A DNA stretch of 64,000 nucleotides. Source: a virus. Its lineage: Duplodnaviria > Caudoviricetes. This document shows, piece after piece, positions 411 through 64,000 of the stretch. Positions within the stretch are counted from its first letter, which is position 1. Each line of letters opens with the position of its first letter. The notes beneath the pieces are model-generated. The model saw only the letters and a list, made by a program, of their open reading frames with translations, searched no databases and was not told the origin of the DNA. The DNA lies in IMG/VR virus record IMGVR_UViG_3300001525_000506, positions 11,552 through 75,551 of that record; one strand, 5' to 3'. The position numbers and the translations under genes were made by a program.

Positions 411-908
411 AATGTTTCACAAAAAGTCTATGTTAAGAAAAGCGACAGCAAAAGAAGCAGAAGAACAAAAGAAAGAAAAAGGTACGTAGTACCTACAAAG
501 AAAGAAAACAAGAAGAGTGTGAAACATACATCTTGACAAGTGAAAATATATTTACTACGTAAATATATAAAGAAAAATCGAGGCAACATTTTCCGCGTTC
601 TTTTTGAGTATTAGCCTAAGGTATTCGTATATATTATTTCGTATATATATTAACATATATATACTCATAAATATACTCATACCATTAGGCGTAGGGTTAA
701 TTTTTTTTTGCTTTCCGTACGCAAGGAAGGAAAATCGCAAGAGAAAAAAATGAAAAAAACCTCCTTCGCGCGCGGACCGATTACGAAAATGGACGATACG
801 CCTCATGCTATGAGTATGGGTATAGAGTATATATATGTTAATATATATACGAATATACACATACGATATAGCTGAGGCTAATACTCGAAATCAACTGGGA
901 ACATGTTG
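411..908. repeat. Repeat unit U1 (diverged direct repeat of 63570-64000, containing two inverted arms)
   Basis: aatgtttcacaaaaagtctat...ggtacgtagtacctacaaagaaag shared with 63570+; arms ~606-693 and 797-908, each with core palindrome gtatatatat-N4-atatatatac. Confidence 0.9.
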
Positions 909-1258
909 TTTTTGGGAACATATTTGACACGTCTTAAATTTCCCCCCTTAGGGGGAAATTCGGGACACGAAACGTATTTGAGAGAGAGGGAAGTTCTTCT
1001 TTTTGAGGCGATACTACGTATCGCCGTTTTTCTTCTATTGGGAGTATGAGTTCTTTCGGGATGGAAGGGGCTTTTCTTAAAAAAGAGGCGAAAAAAGGTA
1101 AACTTTTGAACTAATTTGGTCAAAAATCTACCTTTTTTTCTTATTTCTTTCTTTTAAGACCCACGAAGTGGGTCTATTTCTTTCTATTGTTCTTTTGTTT
1201 GGGTTTTTCTTTTACGCTTTTTCTTTTTTCGGGCTCAAAAACTGGCTCGATTTGGAAG

Positions 1259-1873
1259 TTACCTGCCCTCCGCACTCAATCGAGAGGCGATATCGAGGAA
1301 TTGTTCGATAACGTCCTCGTAGCGGTAAACGGGACCTTTTTTACGCTTAACGGATGCAAACGTAGCAGGGTGACGGGAACAGCTCTTCTCGCTCACACCC
1401 AAAATAATCGACCGAGCGGGTTCGGGAGCGGACTCGAGAACGGAGATAGCGAGAGCAGGGTCGGAAACACAAGCGTTCGGCGTCTTTACGGCGAAGGCTT
1501 GGCGAGCGCGAGCGGTGACGAAGTTAGAGAACTTCATAGCGGACGCAGTCTGGGGGTAGAGTTGAACGCAATCGGCGATGAAAGCATAAGCGGTCGCGGT
1601 ATCGATATCGAACTTCCACGAGAGGAAGTAGGAGAGTGGCGCATCTTGTTTGAACACATCGGAGTAGAAGTTCTCGACGACGATACGAGCAAGCGCCTCC
1701 GAATTAAAAGCCGACCCGAGTGTAACGCGACACCCGAAGATATCGGCATAGGCTTTGTACTTATTTCGAGACTTGTCGAAACAAACCCCCGACAGGAAGA
1801 CGTTGCGCTGCCCCGCAACGTTTTTCTTCGAGTTCAAGTCTTGTTCATTTTCGTAATTTTCGTTATTTTTCAC
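1259..1873 (-). CDS. AP2-like DNA-binding domain protein
   Basis: SGVCFDKSRNKYKAY...RVTLGSAFNSEALAR resembles phage AP2 domains; probable GTG start at 1873 (ORF track starts 1930). Confidence 0.55.
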   Translation of the reverse strand: MKNNENYENEQDLNSKKNVAGQRNVFLSGVCFDKSRNKYKAYADIFGCRVTLGSAFNSEALARIVVENFYSDVFKQDAPLSYFLSWKFDIDTATAYAFIADCVQLYPQTASAMKFSNFVTARARQAFAVKTPNACVSDPALAISVLESAPEPARSIILGVSEKSCSRHPATFASVKRKKGPVYRYEDVIEQFLDIASRLSAEGR

Positions 1874-1996
1874 GAGAGTGTACCTCACAAAATCATTTAT
1901 TTTCGCATTAGACAGCCTCAGACCGCCCAAAAACGAGCGTTAGCCCTAAAATCGATAACTTGTTCGACCTCAAAGCCAACGCCTCCTTAAAATCGA

Positions 1997-2578
1997 TTAC
2001 AGAAGGTCAATGCGTTTTCGTATCAAACTTTTGTACTCAATCATATCGAGTCCGTACTTTGTCATGAACAGAGCGCGAGCGGTATCGTTGAGGACTTGAT
2101 GTTGCAAATCAGCGCAGACCTTGGACTCATACGACTCGTCCTCGTATTCGATAGGGAACTTGCAGTGGAGCAGTTCATGTATGAGCGTTTCTTCTTGGAA
2201 CATAATAAAGTGTTCGTTCCGAGGTTGTTTGTAAATTGTTATTACGCTCGTCTTGGAATCGAAGTCGTAATCGTTATGACCGAGTTCCAATCCTTCACTT
2301 TCTTCATCCACAAGAACGTACGTTATCGCCCAGTCAGCGAGACCGAGAACATCAGCCCATTTCTCTCCACACTTACGCATCTCGAGCCCGTTCTGGAATG
2401 ATTCCCTCAACGGTTCTTTTTCTTTAATATTCATTTTCATAAAACCTCCTTGTGCCATATTCGTTCGCATAAAAACGAGAACGCATTTGTTACAAATCCT
2501 CAAAATCTCAGTTTCGTTCAAACTTCGAAAATAGTCTAAACCGCTACTGAATAGAGGAAATGTCAAATGCGTTCGCAA
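1997..2578 (-). CDS. HExxH metallopeptidase-like protein (true start probably internal, ~2458)
   Basis: EETLIHELLHCKF motif. Confidence 0.55.
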   Translation of the reverse strand: MRTHLTFPLFSSGLDYFRSLNETEILRICNKCVLVFMRTNMAQGGFMKMNIKEKEPLRESFQNGLEMRKCGEKWADVLGLADWAITYVLVDEESEGLELGHNDYDFDSKTSVITIYKQPRNEHFIMFQEETLIHELLHCKFPIEYEDESYESKVCADLQHQVLNDTARALFMTKYGLDMIEYKSLIRKRIDLL

Positions 2579-2588
2579 AAGTTTTTCA

Positions 2589-3188
2589 TTAGCCTCTCTT
2601 ATATTTTGTGTGTAGAATTTGATGGACGCGTTGACGGGAGAGTCCGTAAACGGCTCCGATTTGTTTGTAGGTCAGACCGTCCTCGATATACATCTTCCGC
2701 ATTTCTTCGGCGTTCGGGTTGCGATGAGAAGGAGAAATTTCGGAGACGAGTTTTTTGTATTCGTCTTTATCCTTCCTCTCGATTTGGGAGAGGCGATTCT
2801 TGCGACTTTCGCGACGAGCGTCAATTTCTTCTTTGGGCATGTATTCAAGTTCGCCTTTGTGGATGAGACGTCCGTAGCAGTTACGGCACAAGCCTTTTGC
2901 ATAGACCTCTGGGAATCCGCAACAAGAGCAAACAGAGATGCCCGCAGTCTCATAATCGAAAGACGAGAGCGACCCGTATTCGTCGATAAGCGTCTTGCGC
3001 AACGAGTGTGGTGCGGGCGCGCAATTGTGACACGTCAACACACGCATTGATACAAGGTCTTCTTCGGGGACGAGGAAGGAAGGTCCCGACCCACACGAGC
3101 ATATACACTCACACACACCGTCATCGTTTTGAGAGACGACGGTGAGACGACCGAATCTTGTTCCTTTATCTATTTTGTACTTCGGCAT
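2589..3188 (-). CDS. Zn-binding protein with C-terminal sigma-70 region-4-like HTH
   Basis: FGRLTVV..CECICSCG, CSCC..CRNC, GLTYKQIGAVYGLSRQRVHQIL; start MPKYK at 3188. Confidence 0.65.
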   Translation of the reverse strand: MPKYKIDKGTRFGRLTVVSQNDDGVCECICSCGSGPSFLVPEEDLVSMRVLTCHNCAPAPHSLRKTLIDEYGSLSSFDYETAGISVCSCCGFPEVYAKGLCRNCYGRLIHKGELEYMPKEEIDARRESRKNRLSQIERKDKDEYKKLVSEISPSHRNPNAEEMRKMYIEDGLTYKQIGAVYGLSRQRVHQILHTKYKRG

Positions 3189-3408
3189 TTTGTTGTCTCG
3201 CCTCCTTTTTGATTCTGCGGAGATTACGGGCGCAGATTGACCCGTCTTCGCGTTCTTGTTGAGTTGCATTGCAGTGATAATCGTGGACGCGACGAGCGCA
3301 GCCCTCGCAGTAGTACATACCGCCGCTTTGGTCGCAGGACGTTGCAATACTACGATACCACTTTTCTTGGTCGAGTTTGATTTGTTGTCTTCTGAGTGAT
3401 TCTGCCAT
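3166..3408 (-). CDS. Small Cys-rich hypothetical protein
   Basis: Start MAESLRRQ at 3408; YYCEGC..YHCNA..SICA. Confidence 0.55.
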   Translation of the reverse strand: MAESLRRQQIKLDQEKWYRSIATSCDQSGGMYYCEGCARRVHDYHCNATQQEREDGSICARNLRRIKKEARQQNAEVQNR

Positions 3409-3425
3409 AATAATCGTCACCTCCG

Positions 3426-3704
3426 TTATTCTTCGTCGTCGAAATCGATATAAATGATGTTGAAGAAAGCGCCGTTGTAACTGGGCTCGACAAGAATTTT
3501 CCACACACGATTAATATCCTTGATAGAGTTGAGGTTCTTTTCGAGCGAGGCAGCATCGCAGCGAATGACGCGATATTGCGGCGGCTTTCGTTCGATACCG
3601 ATAGTTACAGCGCGGTCTTCATCCGCATCGTCCACAGTTTCTTCAGCGACTTCGTCCACGACCTTTTCTTCTTCGTTTTCTAAAATTTTCTTTTTGTAAG
3701 GCAT
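3426..3704 (-). CDS. Acidic hypothetical protein
   Basis: RBS aaggagatt upstream, packed in operon. Confidence 0.6.
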   Translation of the reverse strand: MPYKKKILENEEEKVVDEVAEETVDDADEDRAVTIGIERKPPQYRVIRCDAASLEKNLNSIKDINRVWKILVEPSYNGAFFNIIYIDFDDEE

Positions 3705-3728
3705 AATTTTATAATCTCCTTCTTGTTT

Positions 3729-3917
3729 TTATTTATTCTTTTCGGCGCAAGTTGCGACGCGTTTTATATATGCGGATAAATCGCGGTTTTCTTCGAGCCT
3801 GCGTTGTTTTATGACTTCGCGTTTGGCTTTGAATTCGGCATAGCCCGAACACGAATCGTGACAGGCTAAATGCCGAATGGTACAATCTTTGCAAGGACAA
3901 GTGCAATCCAGTTTCAT
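3729..3917 (-). CDS. Small Cys-rich protein (paralogue of 15165-15356)
   Basis: CPCKDC...CHDSCSGYAEFKAKRE; downstream of promoter 3941-3970. Confidence 0.65.
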   Translation of the reverse strand: MKLDCTCPCKDCTIRHLACHDSCSGYAEFKAKREVIKQRRLEENRDLSAYIKRVATCAEKNK

Positions 3918-3940
3918 AATTTTTCTCCTTTACAACCGAT

Positions 3941-3977
3941 ATTATATCATAATATGACAGAACTTGTCAAGGGGTTT
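3941..3977 (-). promoter_or_regulatory. sigmaA-type promoter
   Basis: AAACCCC-TTGACA-18-TATAAT. Confidence 0.7.
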
Positions 3978-4320
3978 GAATCTGATTTTTCTCTTTATGC
4001 CAAAACGCCACAGTATCGATATTGGTTACGATAATTGTACCGTAGGTGGTGATATAAGAAGACGGTTGTTTCGGGTCGAGGATGATTTCAACAATGTCAT
4101 TGTCATAGATTTTATAAGATTCGACTTTTGCCCATTGCGACCAATATTTTATCTGGACGTAGATGCTTTCGTATCTTTTGCCCGATACTTCTTCAAGAAC
4201 GATATGAGCCGAAGATATGCCCGTCTTCGAATCCGAGTCAGAATCGCATCCGCTGAAAAGAAAAAGTCCGAGGGCGATTACGAGAACGAGAACAATTGAT
4301 ATGATTGTTTTTTTAGTCAT
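3967..4320 (-). CDS. Putative lipoprotein
   Basis: Basic N-terminus, hydrophobic helix, lipobox LFSG-C. Confidence 0.7.
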   Translation of the reverse strand: MTKKTIISIVLVLVIALGLFLFSGCDSDSDSKTGISSAHIVLEEVSGKRYESIYVQIKYWSQWAKVESYKIYDNDIVEIILDPKQPSSYITTYGTIIVTNIDTVAFWHKEKNQIQTP

Positions 4321-4766
4321 TTTTTAGCCTCCTTTGGAATGAATCTACGGTATTTGTCAAGTCCCGCAATCTTATTAGCCCAACTCTCTGTAAAAAATTC
4401 GTAGTAGGACTTGTTGTGTTTTTTTCTGTACTTATCACCGAATGCAGCCCAACATAGAGACGGGATACCGATGACAAAGAGATAGAGCGGTCCGAGGATA
4501 AGGCTTTGAATTGAGTGTCCGTATTCATGGGCGGCAAGGGTTTCGTCATCGTCTCTGTTCAAGAACATAAACATACCGAGAGACAGCGAGCCGTAAGGTA
4601 TATTCCACTTAACCGCTTTTGCATATTTTTGATGTTCGAGCGGGGGATTTATTATGTGGCAATCGCTATTTTGATTACAACTCCACATAAGATACCAAAC
4701 AAGTCCGAAAATGTTTTGTAGAAAACCCCAAGTCCACTGAATGAGTATATATAAAAACTTTTTCAT
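4317..4766 (-). CDS. Membrane protein with HEYGH zincin motif
   Basis: AAHEYGHSIQSLILGPLYLFVIGIPS; hydrophobic segments. Confidence 0.65.
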   Translation of the reverse strand: MKKFLYILIQWTWGFLQNIFGLVWYLMWSCNQNSDCHIINPPLEHQKYAKAVKWNIPYGSLSLGMFMFLNRDDDETLAAHEYGHSIQSLILGPLYLFVIGIPSLCWAAFGDKYRKKHNKSYYEFFTESWANKIAGLDKYRRFIPKEAKK

Positions 4767-4768
4767 TA

Positions 4769-5194
4769 TCAGACCTCCAACAACTCGGGATTATCAAAAA
4801 TATTTCCGATAATTTCGAGGTCTGCATTCACACCGTCTTCAAAAGTGCGCAGATTGTGTTTTACGCCAAGCGCAACTTGAGTCATTTTGCCTTTGCAAAC
4901 GGACCATTCAACACCGAACACGCAGCAAGTGAATTGGACATCGCCGTTATAGGCACCTTCTAACGTAAGTATATCGCCCTCGAAGATAGGTTTACCGTTC
5001 TTGTCATAAAGACCTGTGAATTCCACAATGGTTTCAGGTTTGACTTCGTAAGCGGTTATGCCGCCAGTAAAGAATCCAACGCCGATGCTTTTTGCGATAA
5101 ACATTTGCCCTTTTCGGTCGCAGCCTTTGACGGCATATCCGACTTCCCATTCGTCGTTATCGATTCGCTTACCTTTACAAATAATATCTCTCAT
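4769..5194 (-). CDS. YopX-family protein
   Basis: MRDIICKGKR...VEFTGLYDKNGKPIFEGDIL...EIIGNIFDNPELLE; ATGA overlap with upstream gene. Confidence 0.85.
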   Translation of the reverse strand: MRDIICKGKRIDNDEWEVGYAVKGCDRKGQMFIAKSIGVGFFTGGITAYEVKPETIVEFTGLYDKNGKPIFEGDILTLEGAYNGDVQFTCCVFGVEWSVCKGKMTQVALGVKHNLRTFEDGVNADLEIIGNIFDNPELLEV

Positions 5195-5685
5195 TTTTTC
5201 GTTTCCTCCGTTTGGGTTCTTATATGATGTTTGCATCCGATACACGTTCTATCCGAATCTGTCTGCACTATACAAGGTTCAAAACAATCCATAAAATCGT
5301 TTGAACAAAGTGCGTGATATAATTCTTCGAGCCCGTTTCGCAATGTTTTATCAATTATAGGGCTGTTTATAATTTGCAAAAGAAATGTTTTTGCCTTGAA
5401 TCTTGTAATTTTTGTTCCTCCTTTGGTCGCTGGCATGGCGTTGGCGGTGTCATAGTCGCCCGTTGCGTTCGTGGTTGTAACGCCGACGCCTTTATCGAAT
5501 TCGTCGTCATCAAGTTTTTTGATAAATCCTGATGCCGTTCTTATTTTTCCTCCAGGCGTTATAAGGTTTCCACCTGATTGCCCACAACAAGGACAAGTCC
5601 AGCTGTACCAAAACTGGTCACAGAAATCGATTTTAACTATTGCGCCACATTTAGGACATTTTGTCGGTTCTAATGGGTAGTACAT
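5191..5685 (-). CDS. Zn-ribbon hypothetical protein
   Basis: KCPKCG..TCPCCG. Confidence 0.55.
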   Translation of the reverse strand: MYYPLEPTKCPKCGAIVKIDFCDQFWYSWTCPCCGQSGGNLITPGGKIRTASGFIKKLDDDEFDKGVGVTTTNATGDYDTANAMPATKGGTKITRFKAKTFLLQIINSPIIDKTLRNGLEELYHALCSNDFMDCFEPCIVQTDSDRTCIGCKHHIRTQTEETKK

Positions 5686-6139
5686 TTCTAAACACTCCTA
5701 TTGATTTTTCTTCTACTTCTACGGGTTTGATATCGTTATCGAAATCGAATTCAGGATAAAAGTGTTCCTTTTCGTCTTTGAATTCAAATTTAACCAGGCA
5801 CACCCCGTCAGGAATCGGACTTGGTTTGCGTTCGGGGACGACCAATTTTTCGTCGTCGGGTTCTATCCAAAAATACTGATATTTTTCATCTGGTCTCTCA
5901 TACGCACAGAGTTGAATAAATAATTGTGCGTTTTGAATCGCATATCCACATACGAGCGCTTTTTCGTTGTTGTACTCGACGACGCCACTTAGATTCGGGA
6001 GAATGGCGATATGTTCTTTTTCGATTTCGCTTTCGAGTTCAACCAAACGCGCAATCAAATCGTCTTTTGTGTATCCGCGTCTGATACCGACACTGCCGTC
6101 GGACGCGACTACGGTTAAGGGCTCGTAGTTGTCATTCAT
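5651..6139 (-). CDS. Hypothetical protein
   Basis: RBS aaggagaaaaaac ATG; operon packing. Confidence 0.6.
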   Translation of the reverse strand: MNDNYEPLTVVASDGSVGIRRGYTKDDLIARLVELESEIEKEHIAILPNLSGVVEYNNEKALVCGYAIQNAQLFIQLCAYERPDEKYQYFWIEPDDEKLVVPERKPSPIPDGVCLVKFEFKDEKEHFYPEFDFDNDIKPVEVEEKSIGVFRNVLPIRTDKMS

Positions 6140-9999: not shown

Positions 10000-10232
10000 T
10001 CCTTTTCCCCGAACACGACATATCCATTTTGTTGTGCATAATCGGTAATATACGTAATTTGATAGAACTTCCCAAACATCTTCTTGTTCAGTTCGGCGTC
10101 GTCAACGACATTGTACATAACGATATCGCCGACTTCGTAATTGCGGTCGTTCTTGCGAATCTCGAACATTTTATCGCCGTTGAGTTTCGGTAACGCGAAT
10201 TGCGCTTGTATCTTTAAGTTGTGAATTTTCAT
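9990..10232 (-). CDS. ASCH/DUF3850-like protein
   Basis: MKIHNLKI...KMFEIRKNDRNYEVGD. Confidence 0.8.
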   Translation of the reverse strand: MKIHNLKIQAQFALPKLNGDKMFEIRKNDRNYEVGDIVMYNVVDDAELNKKMFGKFYQITYITDYAQQNGYVVFGEKEWI

Positions 10233-11383
10233 TACGGCGACACTCCTTCTTTATTGAATATCCCACTATCGATAAGTCTTGTTACGAGCCTTTTAATCAT
10301 TAGTGGTGGTACACTCATTCCGCATATATATTCTGATTTTTCTATGCCCAAATCGTAATCTTCAGGGAATGTTTGTGCGTGAAGCACATCTTCATCGCTT
10401 GGGTGATTACCTTTTTCTGTCCATATATCTCCGTGTCCCGCTGTTTGTGTTGGATATATATCGCTTTCTTTAACTACTCTATGAGTTATTCCGCTATTAA
10501 CTCCATAGATACGCATCATACATTCGTTTACGGCTTCATTTGGTCGAATTTGTTTTATTGCCTCGCTCATCTTGCCTTTTGCAATCTTTTCGTGGTCAGT
10601 CTTAAAATCGCCATATTTTATAGGCTCATAGTAGAAGTTGAGGTCAATATCTTGCAAGTCAAAGTCCAATCTTGTTGCTACAAAAAATACACGATGACGA
10701 GTTTGTGGTACGCCCATATCTTCGCCCTTTAAGAGTTCGTGTCGCACTTTATAGCCTATGTCGTGGAACATTTTATAGATTTGTTTGACATACTTCCAAG
10801 CATTACCCAAAAGCAATCCCTCCACATTCTCCATAATCGCAACCTTTGGTCTTAATTTTGCAACAGTTTCGATAAAAACGAATACAAGGTCATCAAGAGT
10901 TTGTACTTTTTGCCCCTCTCTGAATTTCTTTTCTTTACCCCAAGCGTTCTCTCGTTCTCCTGCCATACTAAATGTTGAGCAAGGGGGCGAGCCATCAAGA
11001 ATATCAAGGTGGTAAAGTTCTTCGGGTAGGTCATCAAGATTGTTAAAATCTCGAATATCCATAAGATAGTTGTACTTTGGGTGATGGTTTTTTACATAGA
11101 CATTGTTCATTCTTTTGTCGAGTTCACAATCTCCAATTACATCGCACCCTGCAAGTTTATATCCCATTGTACTGCCCCCCCCACAAGCAAAGCAAGAAAA
11201 GACTTTCAAGCCATTTTTAGGAGGATAGTCGGCAAAACTCCATTTCCAATCTGTTGATTTTTCTCTTTTCAAATGATTTTTCATTTTATCATCTTCTGAC
11301 AAAAAATCAAAAATACTTTGTTCGTTGTCCATAATTAATACCCCTCCTTTGTTATTCTTTTTTCGCAACGTTCCATAAGCCAT
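10232..11383 (-). CDS. DNA cytosine-5 methyltransferase (orphan; probable start ~11332)
   Basis: Motif I FACGGG, catalytic GSPPCSTFS, ENVEGL, QTRHRVFF. Confidence 0.92.
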   Translation of the reverse strand: MAYGTLRKKNNKGGVLIMDNEQSIFDFLSEDDKMKNHLKREKSTDWKWSFADYPPKNGLKVFSCFACGGGSTMGYKLAGCDVIGDCELDKRMNNVYVKNHHPKYNYLMDIRDFNNLDDLPEELYHLDILDGSPPCSTFSMAGERENAWGKEKKFREGQKVQTLDDLVFVFIETVAKLRPKVAIMENVEGLLLGNAWKYVKQIYKMFHDIGYKVRHELLKGEDMGVPQTRHRVFFVATRLDFDLQDIDLNFYYEPIKYGDFKTDHEKIAKGKMSEAIKQIRPNEAVNECMMRIYGVNSGITHRVVKESDIYPTQTAGHGDIWTEKGNHPSDEDVLHAQTFPEDYDLGIEKSEYICGMSVPPLMIKRLVTRLIDSGIFNKEGVSP

Positions 11384-11823: not shown

Positions 11824-11880
11824 GGTAGTTACTCCTTTTGTGTTTTTGTGTCATTATCATATCATATGTCAACAGTCTGC

Positions 11881-12046
11881 GTCAAGTAGGGTTATGAAAA
11901 AAAATATAAAAGAAAAAAAGGCGTTTGCAGACACCTTTTTTCTCGTAGTTTCCTAAAATGCAAGGAAATAGCCACATGTTAATATGTATGTATTTTCTTT
12001 ATTTTATCACATCGATACCCGTTTGTCAATGGGTTTTCAAAAAGTT
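11881..12046 (-). repeat. Tandem-promoter/terminator unit, copy 1
   Basis: High-identity direct repeat of 17212-17371; TTGACA-17-TAAAAT at ~12002-12029 and TTGACG promoter at 11880-11885. Confidence 0.85.
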
Positions 12047-14605: not shown

Positions 14606-15180
14606 GTCAATCCGAAAAGGCTCAAAATTGATAATATAAACGTCATAAAGTTCATTTTTTTTGCACCTCCAAAAATATGTTCATTTACCGCATTCTTAAA
14701 CGGGATACATTGATAGTCTTTCAATACAAACATCCACGCATTCGGCGCGTCGTATTCGTATAGTTGGAATATGCAGTCCTTCCAGTTCTTCATATTTGCA
14801 GATTTGAAGCGAGGCACTTGTATTTGATACTTTTTATCGTTGACAAAAAACTCCAATTCCATAGCCATACCGTAATTGAATTCGATTACTGAATCGAATT
14901 TAACCTTATCGGCATTATTTCCGAAAAACATCTTAAATATGAATTTTATCGTTTTTTCGGTTTCTTTGGTTTTCGATTCTCCCCATACATTATGCAAGTC
15001 CATATACAAGCCATAATCGTCAAATCCGTTCACGATAGCAGCTGCATAACCGTTAAGGGCATCTAATTCGATTTCGATGTTTTTCTTTTCAAACTCGCGA
15101 AAATCGATTACTTTCTTTACTTGTTCAAGACTCTCCGTACAAGGTATTATATTATCAAACATATTTATTTCTCCTTCCAC
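14578..15180 (-). CDS. Hypothetical protein
   Basis: Operon packing. Confidence 0.55.
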   Translation of the reverse strand: MEGEINMFDNIIPCTESLEQVKKVIDFREFEKKNIEIELDALNGYAAAIVNGFDDYGLYMDLHNVWGESKTKETEKTIKFIFKMFFGNNADKVKFDSVIEFNYGMAMELEFFVNDKKYQIQVPRFKSANMKNWKDCIFQLYEYDAPNAWMFVLKDYQCIPFKNAVNEHIFGGAKKMNFMTFILSILSLFGLTWLFGGGLK

Positions 15181-15356
15181 ATTCTGTGTTTATTTCTTCT
15201 GCGGACACGAGCCGCATAATCGTATTTTTCTGCGCGAACGCTATCGAGCATAATTTCACGTTTGGTTTTGAATTCGGCATAATCCGAACACGTAGCGTGA
15301 CAGGTTTCGGTACGAGACGTGCAGTGCCTACAAGGGCAGTCGGATTCAATCTTCAT
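15165..15356 (-). CDS. Small Cys-rich protein (paralogue of 3729-3917)
   Basis: MKIESDCPCRHC..CHATCSDYAEFKTKRE. Confidence 0.6.
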   Translation of the reverse strand: MKIESDCPCRHCTSRTETCHATCSDYAEFKTKREIMLDSVRAEKYDYAARVRRRNKHRMWKEK

Positions 15357-17151: not shown

Positions 17152-17211
17152 TGTTTTCTATTGCTCCTTTTGTGTTTTGTGCCTTTATTATATCAATCGT
17201 CAATATACTGT

Positions 17212-17371
17212 GTCAAGTAGGGTTATGAAAAAAATATAAAAGAAAAAAGGCGTTTGCAGACACCTTCTTTCTCGTAATTTCCTAAAATGCAGAGGAAATT
17301 GCCACAGTTTGTTTAGTTTCTTTCTTTATTTTACCATATCGATACCCGTTTGTCAATGGGTTTTGAAAGTT
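17212..17371 (-). repeat. Tandem-promoter/terminator unit, copy 2
   Basis: gtcaagtagggttatgaaaaaa...gatacccgtttgtcaatgggtttt shared with 11881-12046. Confidence 0.85.
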
Positions 17372-19374: not shown

Positions 19375-20793
19375 TTAAAACCTCTTTTTTAATGCTCTTC
19401 TTCTTTGAGTGTACGCTTTTTCGCAATATGGAATATTTGTGTCCACATAATCATAAATAAGCGGTTGTTTTTTGCCTTCGAGATAGCGTTCAATTCGACC
19501 TGCGCATTGCACAATCAAGCCTTTTTCTTTTGCAGGCGAGCAAAAATGCAATGTATCGAGTTCTTTTATAGAAACGCCTTCTTTTAGGAGTGCATAAGTT
19601 GCGACGATAACGTCCCAATCAATTTGTTGTTTCAATATCTTTTCGCGCCGTTTTGCAGGTGTTTCTCCAACACACAAAACTGCGTTTACGCCTCGTTCTT
19701 GTAACATCTGAACTAAGACTTTACAATGTTCAACTCTGAGTGAAAGAACGATTTGCTTTCTACCTTCTTGCGCGCATTTGACAATGTTTTCGACAATGAC
19801 TTCATTTCGTGTCTGTTTTTCGCATAGGAACGGAATCAGTTTCATATAATCAGTCATACCTGCGCTATCGAGAAGTTGCATCTGGTCGCGCATCGTAATC
19901 GGATAATCCAAATCGATTCTTATGTGTTTCGCCTCCATTGTCTTTACGCGCTCTCTATCGACCTTATACGTGGGGGAGAATGTCCCGTTAGGATTTGCTC
20001 CGATATACGCGTACATCGCGTTAATGAGCCCGTCAGCGCGTACAGGAGTCGCTGTAAGCCCGAATTTGTAACGGGCAGGTATCTTTGACAATACGCTCGT
20101 GAACATCTTCAATTTTGTAGGCGTTCCGCATACATGCGCTGCCTCATCACATATTATAACACCGAATTTATCTTTATACAAGTTCGGGTCGATTTTACAC
20201 ATTGTTTGAACCGTTGAAATTGTAATATCTTCGCCGATTTCGAGTTTGCCTTCGGTTGTGAGCCCGACTTTTGCCATAGGATACAGCTTGAGCAAATCAT
20301 CTTTTGCCTGTCGGAGCAAATCTCCTGTATGGCAGAGCCAAAGCGCCCTTTTCCCGAGCCGTTTTATAAGTTCCATTCCGAGATATGTTTTACCCGAACC
20401 GCACCCTGCAACGATTACGCCGCCTTTTGCATCGATAGCGGCATTGATTGCATCTTCTTGATAATCGAAGAACTCATCAATGCCCTGTACTTTGGCGCTC
20501 TTAAACGAAATATCCGAGGCATTGTTGAAAGATTGATAAATCTTACAGCCTGCTCTATTAAATGCGGGTAAAAGCGCATACAGACAGCCATACGGCACCA
20601 CGAGGATATCTCCGTCAAGATAATAGAGATATATCTTCTCTGGGATGCGTTTCCAACGAATATAATCGTCTTTGCCCATTCGTTTCAATTGTTGGTATTC
20701 AGGGTTATCATAAACAAGATAACGATTGCACCATGAAACGACTTCTGGCGTCGGATTTTCTATTCTGATTTCATTCGATACTATCGCTCGCAT
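19375..20793 (-). CDS. SF2 DEAD/DEAH-like helicase
   Basis: AGCGSGKT, ICDEAAH, GLTATP, LKEGVSI, QCAGRIER. Confidence 0.92.
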   Translation of the reverse strand: MRAIVSNEIRIENPTPEVVSWCNRYLVYDNPEYQQLKRMGKDDYIRWKRIPEKIYLYYLDGDILVVPYGCLYALLPAFNRAGCKIYQSFNNASDISFKSAKVQGIDEFFDYQEDAINAAIDAKGGVIVAGCGSGKTYLGMELIKRLGKRALWLCHTGDLLRQAKDDLLKLYPMAKVGLTTEGKLEIGEDITISTVQTMCKIDPNLYKDKFGVIICDEAAHVCGTPTKLKMFTSVLSKIPARYKFGLTATPVRADGLINAMYAYIGANPNGTFSPTYKVDRERVKTMEAKHIRIDLDYPITMRDQMQLLDSAGMTDYMKLIPFLCEKQTRNEVIVENIVKCAQEGRKQIVLSLRVEHCKVLVQMLQERGVNAVLCVGETPAKRREKILKQQIDWDVIVATYALLKEGVSIKELDTLHFCSPAKEKGLIVQCAGRIERYLEGKKQPLIYDYVDTNIPYCEKAYTQRRRALKKRF

Positions 20794-21199
20794 ATTCTAA
20801 AACCGCCTTAAATTCGTTTAAGTCCTCAATTTTTACTGATTTTTTGCCTTCTCTTTCTGACCTTAAGACTCTATCATAAGGCAAAAAATACAGTTTTTCG
20901 GGAGTGCGCTCCCAGTATATAACAAAACCCATATTGGTTATGTGTGCAAAGTTTTGGGCATACGACATTGACGTTTTTTGGTTTGGTTCAATTCTTTCAA
21001 AAGAGAATGAGGCTTTCTCTTCTTCAAGATGCTTTGCGTCAACAAACCAGATATCATCACATCTGCAAGCAATGATATCAAAGGGTTGTCCGCCAACCTT
21101 TTTCGGCAATATGTATGCCCAGTATCCATTCTCCCGAAGGAAATTGGCTATAAAGTTTTCCGTGGAGTTACCCACGATGTTTTGTACGTTTCCCATCAA
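20771..21199 (-). CDS. PD-(D/E)XK Holliday-junction resolvase-like nuclease
   Basis: GNSTE..GGQPFDIIA..WFVDAK. Confidence 0.75.
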   Translation of the reverse strand: MMGNVQNIVGNSTENFIANFLRENGYWAYILPKKVGGQPFDIIACRCDDIWFVDAKHLEEEKASFSFERIEPNQKTSMSYAQNFAHITNMGFVIYWERTPEKLYFLPYDRVLRSEREGKKSVKIEDLNEFKAVLEYASDSIE

Positions 21200-24288: not shown

Positions 24289-24306
24289 AATTTGTTATTC
24301 TCCTTG

Positions 24307-24834: not shown

Positions 24835-24835
24835 A

Positions 24836-33968: not shown

Positions 33969-34039
33969 GGAAATTATCTCCTTTTTCGTTATATCATTAG
34001 TATAAAACAAAAAAATATGTTAGTCAAGATTTACAGAAC

Positions 34040-37239: not shown

Positions 37240-37320
37240 TGGTGGAGCTGACGAGAATCGAACTCGTTTCTTACGCAGTGCGCTTTGGCTTTATGCGCAA
37301 TCGAAACCATTCTCAACCCC
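37240..37320 (-). ncRNA. Mini-tmRNA: tRNA-like domain only (81 nt)
   Basis: GGGGTTG/CAGCTCC acceptor with G3:U70, 13-nt stemless D region AGAATGGTTTCGA, 7-bp helix, GAA, T-arm ACGAG-TTCGATT-CTCGT, encoded ACCA. Confidence 0.88.
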
Positions 37321-37490: not shown

Positions 37491-37507
37491 ACGTCGTTTG
37501 TGCCATT

Positions 37508-47164: not shown

Positions 47165-50100
47165 TTAAGTCGTCGTTTCGATTTGTGTTCTAACCGAAGA
47201 AGATATAGAAACTTCGTTTACTTCGAAATGGAAATCAACATAACCATCTTGCAAGTTTACTGCTATGTTTACGGGGATTGCGAAAGATTTTGTACTTTTC
47301 GCCCCCATTTCTTCATCGAAATCTTTTTTAGCTGCGCCATTTTTATCAAAGATATTACCTTTGACCGATACCGCAATAGGATTCGGGTTAAAAACGGTTA
47401 AGTCCACGTATTGCCTTGAAGCGCCTATTTCGGAACTTGCACTATAATCGGTCGGTGTTGCAATCGAAAGTTTCAATTGTACAGCTTTTTGTTCGGGCGC
47501 TACCGTCAATTCGTATGAGTTTTTCTTTATAACTTGGTTGCCTATAACCCACGATTCGAAGATTTCACTTTCACATTGCAAAGGCACTTGCTCTCCCACA
47601 TAACGACTTATACTATTGGTCTCGAATACGTTATCGACTAAACTATCGACATTGAACTTAACCATATTCGGACTCGTTGCTATCGGGTCAAAAGTCTGAT
47701 ATGTCGGTGGTTCATATTCTCCATTCTCGTCAACGCAATTGTGTACGATACCGACTTGTCTGCCTACGCTATCATAAACGCGTTCGTCTCTGTTTGTCGT
47801 CTTCGTGATATAGATGTCGATATAACCGCGGTCGAAATCTTCTTTGGTTACATTGACACCAAACACGAAATGATAGCCAGAACGGTCAGGCGTGCTCTTG
47901 TAATAAGACGCGCTATTGGTATAATCTCGTTGATATGCCGAGTCGAAATCGAAATACCAGTATCTTATCGATTGCGTTCCAGACGGAACTTGGTCTAATG
48001 CAACACGTAACTTCTTCTCGGGGACGCCTTTGTCCCTGTCGTTCACTATAGAGAATACTTCGGAAGGCTTTATCGTCGCGAACTTTTTGCCATCGTCATT
48101 ATAGTTATAAGGCAAAATCTTTGACGCGATAGTTTTGTTTATAGCTTCTTCGCTAAATTCCAAAAACATATTACGCTCTACAAGCATATTTTTCTCATAG
48201 TTTATATATGATTGTCCATCGGCACCGCTTGTAGATAATCCAGTTGGACCAGATGACATACTTGGTGAGACCTCATACTTATAATCAAAAACTTCATCAT
48301 AGAGACCACGCGCTATTGGATGGAACTCAATCTTATTTAATTGCGTGATACTTTGACCACTATTCTTTGTCCATCGAGTTATTTCTCCGTCGCCCTTTAA
48401 TATCAAATGCTTTTTATCAATTCCCGCTTCTGATACATACTCCCAATAAATACTTTGTGCGTTAAAGTTACATTGCATCCACGCGCTTTCATACCCAGTA
48501 GTTTTTACTGAAATATCTAATGTAAATTTTTGAGCGTTTTCCGCTCCTCCCTTATTTGATAATAAATTTTTAATATATCTATAACTTGTATCGGTTTGAA
48601 TTTGAATTGTTTTGCCTGTGCCTTGACTCGTTTCTATAAGAGAATATGAGAAAAAAACAGGCTCCCCCATTGATGTTCCGCTATAATTTTGACTATAACC
48701 ATTTATTCGCGGTTTTGTATCCATAGATACATCGATTTTTGCATTTCTATTCGTCAAAACTAAATCGCTTAATTTTAAGAGATATTGACCGATAACAATA
48801 TTTTTATCAGATGCAATTGGCTCAACCTGAAATGTCATATCTATGCGTTCTTTATTATCTTTGTGTATGTTTTTTTCAGAAGACGACATACTGAGCAATC
48901 GTTGTTCTCCTGGCAGTGATAATGTTTTTACAGGAAGATTTTTGCAATACGAATAGAATTGGTCCAGTGTCGCTCTACCCGAATCATTATCTAACACCAA
49001 ATTAGGTATAGAGACATCTGTATGGCTTAATTGATAATCCATATCTTTTATTGCCCCAGTTTCGCGGTCATCTACAATATCATACCATTGTTGTTCCGAA
49101 CCGACATAATATTGGTCATCTTCAGAAGGATGCAAAGCCAAAATTTTCCAATCAGAACTCCAAGTATCAATAAAATTACCTCCTGAAATATTATCAGGCA
49201 TTGCAACATTAAAACACAAACTGTTGCCGCTCGTAAATGTCTGCTCATCTACAAAAAACGGGTTCTTATCTGCGTGCGTTTTTATTATCGCATTATTTAT
49301 GTCGCATATTCTGCTCGAAGGCAAAAATGCGCTAAACAATGTTTCTACGCCTATTTCTGTTATCTTATCTGCCTCTTCTTCTTCAAACCAATCGACAAAA
49401 TATGGCATTATGCTTATTTCGTCTATTATTTGATAAAGAATTATAAGATACTTACCGTTTCTATCTTCTTGACCGCCTTCGCCCGTTATTGTAATAGGTA
49501 AAAAATAATGTTTACCTATTGTAAGAGAATAAGCATCAAGTATGCCACCTGCTAAAAAAATCTTTCCTTTGAAAGCATCCCATACTGATGACTGAGAAGA
49601 TATTGTTTGCGAACATTTTATGGTTTCAAAGTTATATTTGTGCCCCTTTATCTCAAAAAATGTTTTTTCGTCTTTATGTTTTTTGTTTTTAGACAAAAGT
49701 ATAAGCGTTTTTTTATTTTCAGCCCGATTCACAGATTCGCCATAAGACATAAGCTGATATGTCCTATATTTTGCATAAACACTTGTATAAAAATTCTTCA
49801 AGACATAATCTTGTATCCCCGCATATGACACGGAAATATAATTATCGAATATCGAATATTCTCTGCGATAAATGATTACGTCATCATCTGCACCAATAGT
49901 ACCCGTATTCCCAAGCCTTAATATATTCGCAACAGAATAATTATTGCCATCGAGACGACCTTTTAACAAATGTGTCTTATTTGCGAATCTGTTTAATTTC
50001 TCTTTTTGAGATAACCCATCTTTTTCGAGTAGTGTGAGAGAAGAAGAAGAATTATCATTAGAAATAATATTATCTCTGCCCTCATCTCTTGAGTGTACTA

Positions 50101-51808
50101 TTGCCCCATCATAAAATCCCTCATATTCTATTTCAAAAAACACCGTTTTTAGACGTTGGGTATTAGATATCCCTTCAAAGGGATATAATTTTTCAAAATT
50201 TGATACCCAATTATTTGGTATAAAAGTATTTACAAGAACATAATTTTTTGCCGATATATTTTGTTCTTTATAAGTTGCTCCATTATACAAATAAATCATT
50301 CCGTGGGTAAAATCGTCTGTTGTAGTTCCCGTATGTCGATAATAATTATTCTCAATGGGCGTAAAATCGCTTTCAGAGAGGTCTTGTTCTTTTATATTAA
50401 GCTCATTTTCTTTTTCCCTTAGAAAATCTTGCATTTGAGCGAATTCTGTTATTTCGTCTATCGCATAATTCGCGCATACTTTTTTTAAGATATTTTCAAT
50501 ATAAGTAGCTGTTACGTTATAGACCGAAAGACCATCACCACCCTCTACTATTTGGTCAACACGAGAACCCCACCCTTCTATTGTGTTTCCACCTATAGAA
50601 TATGATACTGTACTAATCTTAAATTTTGCCAAATCTTCAATAGAGGTAGGTATTTCTTTTAATTTTTTCCAATCCTGACTAAGCAAATTCCACTCGGTTT
50701 TTTCCTTTACCAATGGTAAAATATCATATTTTGACAATGTATAAACAGGTGTAACTTCTGCGTTTTCTAAACGTATAACTTCGCAAGAGAGATAAAAACA
50801 CATATTGAATTTTTTTACTTTATACAATTTATGTGTTGTTTCCAAACGCATATTTTCAAGTATCATCAAAGCACTATCTTTGCTTCTAAACCCAAAATAT
50901 TCTATAAAATTACACGTGCCATCTTGAGAAAGGGCATCAGAATATTGTCTTCTTGTACCATCACAAAAATCAGAGCTACCCATTTGCCCGACGATACGCG
51001 AAATCATACCTTCTTTTTGCAAGGTAGCAAGGTCGTATGTTTTTGTCCCCCAAGGGGTTTCTGTTCTTTCCGAAATCGCCTTTGCATATATCACGTTATC
51101 TTTGACATACGGTATCATATCCAAAGTAATCATAAGTGAAGATAAAACATCTCTCAAATTCGGATTCGATAACGAGAAATCTTGAGAATAAAAATCACTA
51201 AAAATGGATTTGAGTTCTGGTGCAACTGTGTATTTTTGCACATATTCCCAAGAGTTAATATCTACGTTTTTATCATCATCGTGGATGATTTTGTATTTTT
51301 TATACTTTGGAGAATACAAGTTTACGAAACGCACCAAATACGTATATATGTCAATCTTCTTCGAAACCACCAACGGTTGCGTAACTGAAATATTCGGGAG
51401 CTGAACGACTTCAAGCCCCTTAGTTTCGCTAAAAAGTTCAAGCGAATATGAATATATGTCTTCACTAAGATTAATAATATCTTCCGTGAATTTATCAACA
51501 AGCAAATGACGATAAAACGGGATTCTTACACCCGTTTCTTTGTCAATTTCATCTCCGTCGTGAAGCGTACCGCCGCGTCTCCAAAGTCCGATATGCGAGC
51601 CAAACCATTTTGTCTCATCTTCGCCTTCGGGCGCGCTTTCGTAAATATACACATCATCATATGGTTTTAAGCCTACGATTTGCCCCTTGATATGAGACAA
51701 TCTAACTACGCCGCTATCAAGCGTTTCGTTATATTCTTCGGTAAAAGTCACACCTTGCGCGACTTCGTGTATATATTCTTTATCGTGTATTCTAACAGTT
51801 AAGTTCAT
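47165..51808 (-). CDS. Large tail/baseplate hub protein
   Basis: 1547 aa; FTEEYNETLDSG N-terminus; tail-operon position; AT-rich central region. Confidence 0.65.
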   Translation of the reverse strand: MNLTVRIHDKEYIHEVAQGVTFTEEYNETLDSGVVRLSHIKGQIVGLKPYDDVYIYESAPEGEDETKWFGSHIGLWRRGGTLHDGDEIDKETGVRIPFYRHLLVDKFTEDIINLSEDIYSYSLELFSETKGLEVVQLPNISVTQPLVVSKKIDIYTYLVRFVNLYSPKYKKYKIIHDDDKNVDINSWEYVQKYTVAPELKSIFSDFYSQDFSLSNPNLRDVLSSLMITLDMIPYVKDNVIYAKAISERTETPWGTKTYDLATLQKEGMISRIVGQMGSSDFCDGTRRQYSDALSQDGTCNFIEYFGFRSKDSALMILENMRLETTHKLYKVKKFNMCFYLSCEVIRLENAEVTPVYTLSKYDILPLVKEKTEWNLLSQDWKKLKEIPTSIEDLAKFKISTVSYSIGGNTIEGWGSRVDQIVEGGDGLSVYNVTATYIENILKKVCANYAIDEITEFAQMQDFLREKENELNIKEQDLSESDFTPIENNYYRHTGTTTDDFTHGMIYLYNGATYKEQNISAKNYVLVNTFIPNNWVSNFEKLYPFEGISNTQRLKTVFFEIEYEGFYDGAIVHSRDEGRDNIISNDNSSSSLTLLEKDGLSQKEKLNRFANKTHLLKGRLDGNNYSVANILRLGNTGTIGADDDVIIYRREYSIFDNYISVSYAGIQDYVLKNFYTSVYAKYRTYQLMSYGESVNRAENKKTLILLSKNKKHKDEKTFFEIKGHKYNFETIKCSQTISSQSSVWDAFKGKIFLAGGILDAYSLTIGKHYFLPITITGEGGQEDRNGKYLIILYQIIDEISIMPYFVDWFEEEEADKITEIGVETLFSAFLPSSRICDINNAIIKTHADKNPFFVDEQTFTSGNSLCFNVAMPDNISGGNFIDTWSSDWKILALHPSEDDQYYVGSEQQWYDIVDDRETGAIKDMDYQLSHTDVSIPNLVLDNDSGRATLDQFYSYCKNLPVKTLSLPGEQRLLSMSSSEKNIHKDNKERIDMTFQVEPIASDKNIVIGQYLLKLSDLVLTNRNAKIDVSMDTKPRINGYSQNYSGTSMGEPVFFSYSLIETSQGTGKTIQIQTDTSYRYIKNLLSNKGGAENAQKFTLDISVKTTGYESAWMQCNFNAQSIYWEYVSEAGIDKKHLILKGDGEITRWTKNSGQSITQLNKIEFHPIARGLYDEVFDYKYEVSPSMSSGPTGLSTSGADGQSYINYEKNMLVERNMFLEFSEEAINKTIASKILPYNYNDDGKKFATIKPSEVFSIVNDRDKGVPEKKLRVALDQVPSGTQSIRYWYFDFDSAYQRDYTNSASYYKSTPDRSGYHFVFGVNVTKEDFDRGYIDIYITKTTNRDERVYDSVGRQVGIVHNCVDENGEYEPPTYQTFDPIATSPNMVKFNVDSLVDNVFETNSISRYVGEQVPLQCESEIFESWVIGNQVIKKNSYELTVAPEQKAVQLKLSIATPTDYSASSEIGASRQYVDLTVFNPNPIAVSVKGNIFDKNGAAKKDFDEEMGAKSTKSFAIPVNIAVNLQDGYVDFHFEVNEVSISSSVRTQIETTT

Positions 51809-51811
51809 AGT

Positions 51812-52429
51812 TTAATACTCCGTTCCCCTTCCGCCATTTACAAGACTGGCTCGCGATGCCATAAATTCGGTTTGTGCATTTATAGCATTCAATTGCATAT
51901 TATGTTGTTCGATTTTTTGGTCGCGTTCTGCCCTCGTCATTATACCAGTCTTTACACCGCTTGATATTGCGCCTATTACCGCTCCCACAGCCATTACTCC
52001 AATGTTGCCAGTAACAGCACCAGCCGCTGCACCAGCCGCAGCGCCCGAACCAATTGAAGACAACATCGATTTCGCCGTTCCAATTTGCGTCTGAATAGCA
52101 TTCATTTTGTTTTGTCCCAAGTAGTCTTCAGTAAGCGTAAAATATCGATTATGCTCCATCATTGCTATTGAATATGCCGTAGATAAAGCATCTCCTAATA
52201 CTTTTGCGCCTATACCAACCGCTGCCGTTGCGCCACTGCTACCTCCAAGAAAATCAATCGCGGCATTCTTTACGTCTTCTTGAGCTGTTTGTATCGGGTG
52301 CAAAACCTTATTTAATCCTTCTCGCATTAAATCGGCAGGCGTTTTTTCTTTTTTCTTTGGTGCTCCGCCACCACCGTCACCAGTACCACCTTCGCCCAAT
52401 ATGGTTATTACGATATCGCCTCTTTCCAT
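51812..52429 (-). CDS. Short tape-measure/ejection-like protein
   Basis: Gly/Ala-rich amphipathic stretch GAAAGAAAGAVTG; only 205 aa. Confidence 0.5.
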   Translation of the reverse strand: MERGDIVITILGEGGTGDGGGGAPKKKEKTPADLMREGLNKVLHPIQTAQEDVKNAAIDFLGGSSGATAAVGIGAKVLGDALSTAYSIAMMEHNRYFTLTEDYLGQNKMNAIQTQIGTAKSMLSSIGSGAAAGAAAGAVTGNIGVMAVGAVIGAISSGVKTGIMTRAERDQKIEQHNMQLNAINAQTEFMASRASLVNGGRGTEY

Positions 52430-61682: not shown

Positions 61683-61711
61683 TTGACAAAGCAAATCTTG
61701 TATGTTATAAT
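61683..61711 (+). promoter_or_regulatory. Consensus sigmaA promoter
   Basis: TTGACA-17-TATAAT with A-tract UP element. Confidence 0.85.
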
Positions 61712-62974: not shown

Positions 62975-62980
62975 ACGACG

Positions 62981-63009
62981 AGTATAACACACAAGGAGTA
63001 GCCGTGCAA
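62981..63009 (-). promoter_or_regulatory. Promoter giving leaderless mRNA
   Basis: TTGCAC-17-TATACT, ATG 6 nt downstream. Confidence 0.65.
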
Positions 63010-63092
63010 GTAGTGATATAATAAAAATCGCAGCGGAACAAAAAGGTCGTCGAAAAAAATACAAAAAATTTTTACCAAATGTGTTAAAACGC

Positions 63093-63121
63093 TTTACAAA
63101 TAAAATCATATTTGATATAAT
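63093..63121 (+). promoter_or_regulatory. sigmaA promoter
   Basis: TTTACA-17-TATAAT. Confidence 0.75.
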
Positions 63122-63169
63122 CAAGATGATGGTTGAGGGAGTCAACCGATACAAAGGAGTTAAGAAACT

Positions 63170-63451
63170 ATGACAAATCAAAACGCTTACATGCAACAAC
63201 TTATCATCAACGACCATGGTGTTGAAACGGTTTACGTAAACATTTGCAAATACCGCCCGTCGTACGCAAAGATTGTTGCTTGGAAAAACAAAATGGACAA
63301 GCAATACAAAATCAACGAGAATGGACATTTTGAAATTAATTCATACAGAGGTTTCAAGTGGGTTGGCATTGGAGTAACGATTGAAACAAAGACATACGAC
63401 ATTGGAACTGGAACGGGTTGTCAGCCGATGGAATATCTTCCTCTGGCGTAA
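63170..63451 (+). CDS. Early hypothetical protein
   Basis: RBS aaggag; own promoter; terminator 63474-63508. Confidence 0.65.
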   Translation: MTNQNAYMQQLIINDHGVETVYVNICKYRPSYAKIVAWKNKMDKQYKINENGHFEINSYRGFKWVGIGVTIETKTYDIGTGTGCQPMEYLPLA

Positions 63452-63569
63452 TCGATATCAAACACACAACAAGAAATAGCGGTTGAGAAATCGACCGTTA
63501 TTTTTTTTATCTTTTGTATTCGTAACCCGTGCAAAGCCTTATCGTCTGCAGCAAGTGTTCGAGAGCGAA

Positions 63570-64000
63570 AATGTTTCACAAAAAGTCTATCGTTAAGAAA
63601 AGTGCCTCAAAAGAATCAAAAGAACAGTAGAAAGAAAAAGGTACGTAGTACCTACAAAGAAAGAGGAAAGAAAAGTTGTGAAACATTGGCTTGACAAGTA
63701 AAACTATATTTATTATATAAATATAGAAAAATTTTTTGAGCAACATGTTCCCATTTGATTTCGAGTATTAGCCTCAGGTATATCGTATGTATATATTCGT
63801 ATATATATTAACATATATATACTCTATATCCATACTCATACCATGAGGCGTATTCTTATTTTTTTTTTGCTTTCCGTACGCGATGAAGTAAAATCGTGAG
63901 GGAACAAAATGAAAATGAACTACTTGCGCGCGGAAACGTTACGAAAATGAGCCGTACGTCTAATGGTATGAGTATATTTATGAGTATATATATGTTAATA
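63570..64000. repeat. Repeat unit U2 (truncated by window edge)
   Basis: Diverged direct copy of 411-~845; left arm 63741-63852, right arm from 63955. Confidence 0.9.

Follow-up and report, generated by a model that had tools for sequence, protein, structure and literature searches.

The replication origins of herpes simplex virus (HSV), oriS and oriL, are AT-centred palindromes that lie between transcription units, one origin type being present in two copies in a genome composed of long and short segments, and the oriS copies sit in large identical inverted repeats that drive segment inversion. Two-site replication systems also occur in phages, as in P4, in which ori and crr are bound by the alpha primase-helicase, and in SPP1, with oriL and oriR. 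On a smaller scale, the non-coding hairpins of plastid genomes undergo recurrent small inversions and homogenization of their arms, and large palindromes undergo arm-to-arm conversion; palindromes align in both orientations, giving rise to concerted evolution of the arms and to loop flips. Here we describe a composite palindromic non-coding unit present in two copies, U1 and U2, in the genome (G0) represented by the IMG/VR virus record IMGVR_UViG_3300001525_000506. The stretch analyzed, hereafter the window, is the final 64 kb (64,000 nt) of this 75,551-bp contig (contig positions 11552-75551), which is estimated to be 100% complete and whose end coincides with that of the window; the positions given below for G0 are those of the window unless contig positions are specified.

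In pRN1, a replicon with a replication protein (ORF904) that combines a PrimPol with a superfamily 3 (SF3) helicase, replication requires a stem-loop of ~100 nt, located immediately downstream of the replication gene, of which the structure is conserved and the sequence is not (PMC4234260). The authors of that study draw attention to comparable stem-loops in phages whose replication protein is of this kind, for instance BIP-1 (PMC4234260). The replication protein of G0 likewise consists of a PrimPol and an SF3 helicase, the candidate stem-loop keeps its structure while its sequence turns over (fold z-scores of -11 and -21), and a small terminator hairpin adjoins the element. The phage unit differs from that of pRN1 in being a composite of ~0.6 kb, in which two AT hairpins enclose a polar GC hairpin and which is present twice per genome, and in lying 18-20 kb from the replication gene rather than directly downstream of it, its role as an origin being putative.

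Arm relationships within and between the units

U1 (404-960), which lies between two minus-strand genes, and U2 (63563-64000), which is cut within its right arm by the contig end, are direct repeats with a start-to-start spacing of 63,159 bp. The initial annotation of the window had reported this arrangement and we reproduced it, contig positions 11955-12394 aligning with 75114-75551 at 81.5% identity over 444 nt (E 3e-110). Within each unit, a left arm (armL) and a right arm (armR) flank a spacer, forming an imperfect palindrome. In U1 these parts are an armL of type 1 (584-693, plus strand), the spacer (694-796, plus) and an armR of type 2 (797-908, minus), and in U2 an armL of type 2 (63741-63852, plus), the spacer (63853-63954, plus, direct relative to that of U1) and an armR of type 1 (63955-64000, minus). 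As the contig stops inside the armR of U2, only 46 nt of this fourth arm are known and only three full copies of the 10-4-10 palindrome of the arms are in the data (641-664, 827-850, and 63799-63822). The fourth copy is visible for 17 nt, so that the earlier statement that every arm carries this palindrome held in full for three arms and in part for the one cut by the contig end.

The closest arms in G0 are those that lie crosswise. By pairwise alignment, U1 armR is identical to the reverse complement of U2 armL at 107 of 112 positions and U1 armL to the reverse complement of U2 armR at 45 of 46, both as previously noted, compared with 85% identity for same-side pairs and 83-87.5% for within-unit pairs. 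The high crosswise identity ends exactly at the arm boundaries, and the spacers, which had been described as non-inverted, align directly (83/104), with no inverted alignment between the two obtained. By Fisher test, the crosswise excess reaches significance in the 112-nt pair (p = 0.004-0.012) and is only marginal in the 46-nt pair (p = 0.06-0.11). The five differences within the longer pair are scattered, its longest exact run being 37 nt; exact runs between arms reach at most 41 nt, and the arms share exact 29-41-mers.

The explanation that we favor, by a modest balance of probability, is that the crosswise pattern results from lineage-specific gene conversion between hairpin arms that are interchangeable and belong to two composite palindromes resembling origins; the conversion is a mechanism that we infer from the pattern. 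The unit would constitute a replication-origin or regulatory module with extrudable hairpins that could be recognized by the PrimPol-SF3 helicase of the phage, and both of its strands are probably transcribed, with its own terminators providing insulation. Arms lying in inverted orientation would then undergo non-reciprocal homologous exchange (gene conversion), which would not extend beyond the 112 nt of homology and of which the exonuclease and single-stranded DNA-binding (SSB) recombination genes of the phage itself are the probable drivers. That the crosswise match occurs only in G0 makes it look like copying between arms rather than like a flip-flop or telomere system.

To recover related genomes, a pattern search with the 24-nt palindrome was followed by searches with other unit motifs and with the portal protein, and relatives were obtained from IMG/VR, from ENA human-gut metagenomes and from one metagenome-assembled genome (MAG); in these relatives the position of U1 is referred to as UB and that of U2 as UA. 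Five unrelated viral contigs that matched an 18-mer arm motif contained no unit and were dismissed as chance matches, and an exact look-up of the protein encoded beside U2, meant to uncover further assemblies, gave no record. The relative G2 (75,979 bp) is colinear with the G0 contig and circularly permuted with respect to it, from which it follows that the end of the G0 contig joins its start through U2 and that the map is circular, with the units about 12.4 kb apart one way and 63 kb the other. Both units are found at the corresponding positions in G1, G2, and G9, and single units are present in the fragments G3, G6, G10, and L068 and in five ENA human-gut contigs. On the basis of these sequence comparisons we conclude that a two-copy composite palindrome of about 0.55-0.67 kb is a shared feature of a family of ~75-78-kb uncultured human-gut phages. 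The unit had no match in a search of cultured-phage DNA, the primase and terminase have only distant relatives (30-37% identity), and the family has no cultured relative in the collection searched. There are two clues as to the host: the related 16-kb phage contig L068 (CAZLVK010000023.1) was binned in a MAG labeled uncultured Bacteroidaceae, a binning that may be wrong, and the promoters (sigma-70-type, TTGACA-17-TATAAT) and ribosome-binding sites (AGGAG) of the family look Firmicutes-like.

Comparison of the units among these genomes revealed at least five unrelated arm sequences on one conserved scaffold, namely the type found in G0, G1, and G2, those of G9, G10, and L068, and that of the odd UB right arm of G1, G2, and G6. 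In the latter three genomes the position of U1 armR is occupied by an unrelated AT-rich palindrome, and in the unit of G3 the left arm is of the G0 type and the right arm of the G9 type. Arms of type 1 remain 93-98% conserved in genomes that share about 75% identity outside them (U1 armL, for example, is 93-95% identical to the orthologous arm of G1, G2, and G6, the flanking genome only about 72-77%), and this degree of conservation points to sequence-specific recognition and not to pairing alone. U2 armL is only 82.6% identical to its positional orthologue, the UA armL of G1.

The closest arms are the same-side ones in G1 and G2 (88-90%), while in G9 they are the within-unit pairs (93.4%, the hairpin part being identical by eye) together with the same-side pairs (93.2%), and all three possible arm pairings occur, in different genomes. 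The crosswise pattern, whose retention in related phages the initial annotation had proposed as a check, is absent from G1, G2, and G9, and same-side matching, which it had named as grounds for rejecting its proposal, is what was found in G1 and G2. Hairpin stems and outer boxes carry compensatory or concerted changes among genomes; the outer boxes, for instance, read CCGAG in G1 and CCCAG in G2 at all four sites, and the partner arm carries the matching change. We conclude that the arms are interchangeable modules that evolve in concert. A separate observation concerns the terminator to the right of UB, which in G1 (15270-15295) and G2 (63735-63760) has the same stem (GGCGATAC/GTATCGCC) and a loop of GTA and TAC, respectively, a difference that we interpret as a small hairpin-loop inversion between sister genomes. 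The unit on the low-coverage ENA contig M50 (L050, ERZ808258, 1,075 bp, coverage about 2) is a hybrid, with a leader and left arm like those of G9 UA and a spacer and right arm like those of G9 UB, and represents either a UA/UB recombinant or a low-coverage chimera.

Unit anatomy and gene content

From the outside in, the layout of a unit comprises GTTTCAC boxes, an outward-facing terminator hairpin with a three-base loop, a TTGACA with an AT hairpin, an outer inverted box, the AT-rich hairpin arm and the polar GC-hairpin core, followed by the mirror image of the outer parts. The outermost element is formed by inverted ATGTTTCAC boxes (GTTTCAC), four GTTTCAC boxes being present per full unit. 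In the leader of U1 (412-527), inverted ATGTTTCACA / TGTGAAACAT boxes (412-421 and 518-527) surround the hairpin GGTAC-GTA-GTACC (481-493), and a terminator scan found this hairpin and the T-run that follows it as an outward-facing terminator (494-480, minus). The stem of the leader hairpin co-varies across relatives (GGTGATAC/GTATCACC, GGTGTAC/GTACACC, GGACGATAC/GTATCGTCC, and ATCCAC/GTGGAT), and the sequence TGTTTCAC is nearly confined to the units, which hold four of its five copies in the contig. Next to the leader, a TTGACA (533-538) and an AT-rich hairpin (546-568) form a promoter-plus-operator-like element (533-568, plus) that points into the arm, the stem of the AT hairpin co-varying between U1, U2, and the relatives.

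U1 armL contains short direct repeats (TCGTATATAT twice and ATACTCATA twice) and an inward-facing promoter-like site, TTAACA-16-TATACT, the corresponding sites across the arms being TTAACA-16/17-TATACT. The spacer of U1, its polar core, has a run of nine T residues and then a GC-rich stem (713-730 pairing with 760-776) that encloses a purine-rich loop. This stem co-varies as well (AAGGAAGG/CCTCCTT vs. GATGAG/CTCATC), and the polarity of the spacer is identical in all units of all relatives. A small open reading frame (ORF) in the spacer, with a Shine-Dalgarno-like GAGGG and an ATG, TTG or GTG start, was considered and rejected, as neither its length (12 to about 41 codons) nor its frame is conserved, the frame shifting relative to the GC stem among the units compared. 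On the right of U1 are a conserved flank hairpin, AAATTTCCCCCC-TTA-GGGGGAAATT (936-960, plus), and two tandem terminators (1007-1025 and 1157-1175, plus), and this right flank (936-1175) is conserved in G1, G2, G9, G10, and L068. There is no plus-strand gene upstream of the tandem terminators, which implies that transcription comes out of U1.

As a whole, U1 folds as one giant hairpin (-100 kcal/mol as single-stranded DNA, z = -11.5), and its orthologues are located at 63129-63674 in G2 and 14675-15218 in G1, with further units in G6, G9, G10, and L068. A complete UA, as found in the relatives, is a palindrome of ~670 bp that bears a second, inverted leader; for that of G2 (51392-52060) the folding energy is -168 kcal/mol (z = -21). 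The genome contains no large AT-rich palindromes other than U1 and U2, and none comparable was found in or near the replication module.

The replication protein of G0 (21196-23703, minus) combines a PrimPol with an NrS-1-type HBD, a D5_N domain and an SF3 helicase (phrog_1829, E = 5e-190; Pfam matches PF22763, PF08706, and PF19263), and is the candidate origin-recognizing enzyme. The neighboring recombination module (23809-25660) consists of a PD-(D/E)XK exonuclease (DUF3799; 24836-25660, minus), an unidentified protein (24307-24834, minus) and a DUF669/SSB-like protein (23809-24288, minus), and this exonuclease/SSB-like module is the candidate machinery for gene conversion between arms. The genome further encodes a second helicase and SSB-like proteins, and no match to a DNA polymerase family was seen among the ORFs scanned. 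The PrimPol-helicase and exonuclease/SSB genes indicate that the genome has a self-priming replicative helicase and homologous-recombination functions.

The gene adjoining the UB unit (1259-1930, minus) is syntenic in all relatives and encodes a fast-evolving protein of 223 aa, with only 25-35% identity among relatives compared with 40-66% for the products of the flanking genes. A DNA-binding role of the AP2-like kind is suspected for this protein, but an AP2 domain was rejected, there being no Pfam match even at E <= 1 and, among PHROGs, only a weak match to phrog_953 (E = 0.009). Its divergence did not correlate with arm type, as G1 and G2 share the type-1 arms of G0 and their proteins are just 25-27% identical to that of G0. 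Two genes from U1, a 252-aa protein (2589-3347, minus) has a C-terminus of sigma-70 region-4/helix-turn-helix type and is conserved in all relatives at about 40% identity.

Several other observations were made in the course of this work. The plus strand carries about nine strong early promoters of near-identical sequence (a UP element rich in A/T, TTGACAA, 17 nt and an extended -10), which lie in repeated intergenic cassettes at contig (L007) positions 300-6100 and window position 61683; the last of these is to the left of U2, which means that the early block spans U2. A direct repeat of ~200 bp, intergenic and resembling a promoter/terminator cassette in the minus-strand block, is present at 11844-12041 and 17175-17368 (5.3 kb apart and 86% identical), and a third, weaker copy lies at 37496. 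The Rfam tmRNA model (RF00023) matched only 81 nt (37240-37320, minus) with 56.9 bits, above the gathering score, in what resembles a stand-alone tRNA-like domain of tmRNA, and ARAGORN found no tmRNA or tRNA; no tRNA genes were found in the search. A gene for a 765-aa tail protein (31713-34010) contains four to five tandem repeats of 144 nt, or 48 aa (32221-32864), and the structural block includes an ORF of 1,547 aa (47165-51808, minus) with no PHROG or Pfam match. Lastly, a 1.1-kb patch of G9 (L046; reverse complement of 20105-21197) is 93.8% identical to contig positions 21795-22887 (window 10244-11336), overlapping a DNA methyltransferase gene (10232-11383), in genomes that are otherwise about 70% identical, which points to recent mosaic exchange.

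Competing explanations for the crosswise pattern

The initial annotation had attributed the crosswise matches to recurrent inversion or gene conversion between opposite arms, as in a flip-flop isomer system of the 2-micron or plastid type, or alternatively to paired origin or telomere-resolution sites. Conversion between opposite arms survives from this proposal as the simplest account of the 95.5% pair, and paired origin sites fit the anatomy of the units, for which an origin function is presumed; recurrent inversion is not supported, the segments being colinear in the assemblies of all relatives. It is unlikely that homologous recombination between the inverted arm pairs repeatedly inverts the 62.8-kb and/or the ~12-kb segment, with virion or replicating DNA being a mix of isomers and recombination keeping the crosswise pairs alike. 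Such a system would agree with the fact that in G0 the arms bordering each segment are those most alike (107/112 and 45/46), with the recombination functions that the phage encodes and with the break of the contig within U2. However, flip-flop by homologous recombination calls for long, near-identical and conserved inverted repeats, whereas the arms are 112 nt long and 95.5% identical with exact runs of 37-41 nt, the crosswise arrangement is absent from G1, G2, and G9, and in the consensus assemblies of all relatives the relative orientation of the two segments is unchanged, neither being inverted in any of them. Seven independent assemblies of the G2-type UA also have a single polarity. As one arm is replaced by an unrelated palindrome in G1, G2, and G6, inversion of large segments mediated by the arms cannot be a conserved function. 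Nor is a site-specific recombinase encoded: six-frame profile searches of the whole 75.5-kb contig for tyrosine and serine recombinases (PF00589 and PF00239, E <= 0.1) gave no match, the control genomes being positive, and protelomerase (PF16684) was not matched either. The absence of these enzymes, first remarked on for the window, therefore extends to the 11.5 kb outside it, where the initial annotation had suggested that they be sought. Against telomere resolution there is in addition the center of the 10-4-10 palindrome, TAAC/GTTA (TAAA in G2 UB), which is not self-complementary and lacks dyad symmetry. It is quite unlikely, too, that the units are recombination-active origins, in which hairpin or cruciform extrusion of an arm would load the PrimPol-helicase and start inter-unit recombination, yielding 63-kb/12-kb inversion isomers without a site-specific recombinase. 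If true, this would amount to a herpesvirus-like genome in a bacteriophage, with isomerizing long and short segments, and such isomers, if found, would be an unusual genome organization for a phage.

A minor but real possibility is that the units are not origins but mainly transcription elements, such as convergent promoter/terminator cassettes serving for long hairpin or antisense non-coding RNAs or for operon insulation, in which case the arm pattern would still be due to conversion. The outward-facing terminators at both unit borders, the tandem plus-strand terminators right of U1 and the inward promoter-like sites (TTGACA in the leaders and TTAACA-16/17-TATACT in the arms) speak for such a role, and the covariation of the stems is compatible with RNA structure. 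Conversely, the units matched no Rfam family (sub-threshold miRNA-like noise only), the promoter scan did no better than shuffled expectation, and the conservation of the type-1 arm (93-98% amid genomes of about 75%) points to sequence-specific recognition. It is very unlikely that U2/UA marks the physical ends of the genome or a packaging start (pac, cos or terminal repeat boundary), with the palindromes acting as terminase or end-processing signals. Three independent assemblies start or end at or beside UA, which lies at the border of the early plus-strand and the long minus-strand blocks, as such a reading would have it, but those of G1, G2, and G9 run straight through UA and break elsewhere. 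The end of the G0 contig falls within a 29-bp core (TTCGTATATATATTAACATATATATACTC) that is exact in all arms, an expected break site in a de Bruijn graph, so that it has the look of a break introduced during assembly at a palindromic word that recurs; the second, internal copy (U1) would be left unexplained, and about 17 kb separate the large terminase gene from U1 and about 45 kb from U2. That the crosswise pattern is itself an assembly artifact, whether a two-strain chimera or a switch of path from one arm to another, is highly improbable. The exact 29-41-mers common to the arms and the break of the contig in one of them could have favored such an error; yet the crosswise arms have five scattered differences, the sequence on either side of each arm (leader, spacer, and flank) is locus-specific and orthologous to that of relatives, and a chimera would require two path switches inside each 112-nt arm.

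Several points qualify the crosswise pattern itself or weigh against gene conversion between the arms of origin-like units, the reading that we prefer. To account for both crosswise pairs, two conversion events are needed, or one unusual event. The known 46 nt of U2 armR correspond to the best-conserved part of the arm (95.7-97.8% identical to all type-1 arms in relatives), and as they match every type-1 arm about equally, the 46-nt pair is informative about little more than membership in type 1. Type-2 arms are confined to G0, no further arms of this type being found when sought in IMG/VR, and since two arm variants on four sites allow only three pairings, the prior for a crosswise arrangement is about 1 in 3. 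Three assemblies (G0, M53, and M54) break at or beside UA, and these breaks could reflect physical genome ends or a packaging site and not just a palindrome-induced assembly break. As to an origin, which we regard as the most likely function of the unit, that assignment is derived wholly from sequence features. The units are 18-20 kb or more from the PrimPol gene (21196-23703), a DnaA box (TTATCCACA) was not found and relaxed boxes are not enriched at the units, GC skew merely tracks the gene strand and provides no origin marker, and the TTGACA of the leader is followed by a poor -10 element. Of the features of an iteron/AT-rich theta origin, the units have only pairs of short repeats in the arms (TCGTATATAT and ATACTCATA, each twice) and the four GTTTCAC boxes of a full unit, together with AT-rich hairpins.

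Where a single assembly ends within a palindrome, crosswise identity should thus not be interpreted as a flip-flop or telomere system. What this phage family gains is a concrete candidate, present twice per genome, for the cis-element at which its PrimPol-helicase would initiate, and its hairpin arms clearly illustrate, in nature, how modules are swapped and evolve in concert.

Comparison with known systems

Like the origins of HSV, the phage units are AT-centred palindromes that lie between transcription units in two copies, and they split the map into a long and a short segment; they differ in being direct repeats of about 80% identity, and no segment inversion was seen between genomes. The likeness to P4 and SPP1 lies in two separated cis elements with short repeated motifs and in a candidate initiator of primase-helicase type, although no iteron arrays of the P4 or SPP1 kind were seen in the phage units, and the resemblance between the P4 octamer TGTTCACC and the phage box TGTTTCAC is a lead only. 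With the Flp/FRT system of the 2-micron plasmid and with plastid genomes the phage shares a circular map that is split in two by repeats containing inverted arms. However, the phage has no recombinase, its arrangement is not conserved, no inverted isomer was present in any assembly, and its repeats are imperfect and 112 nt long as opposed to identical and 599 bp or about 25 kb long. The telRL sites of N15, PY54, and phiKO2 are, like the arms described here, AT-rich palindromic elements in phages, but G0 is without a protelomerase, the center of its element is not dyad-symmetric, and there are four copies per phage genome, all inside larger units, in assemblies that are permuted. Lastly, the terminator loop that reads TAC in G2 and GTA in G1 resembles the loop flips of plastid hairpins, and the phage arms differ from these hairpins and from large palindromes in that exchange would have taken place not just within units but also between units 12 or 63 kb apart.

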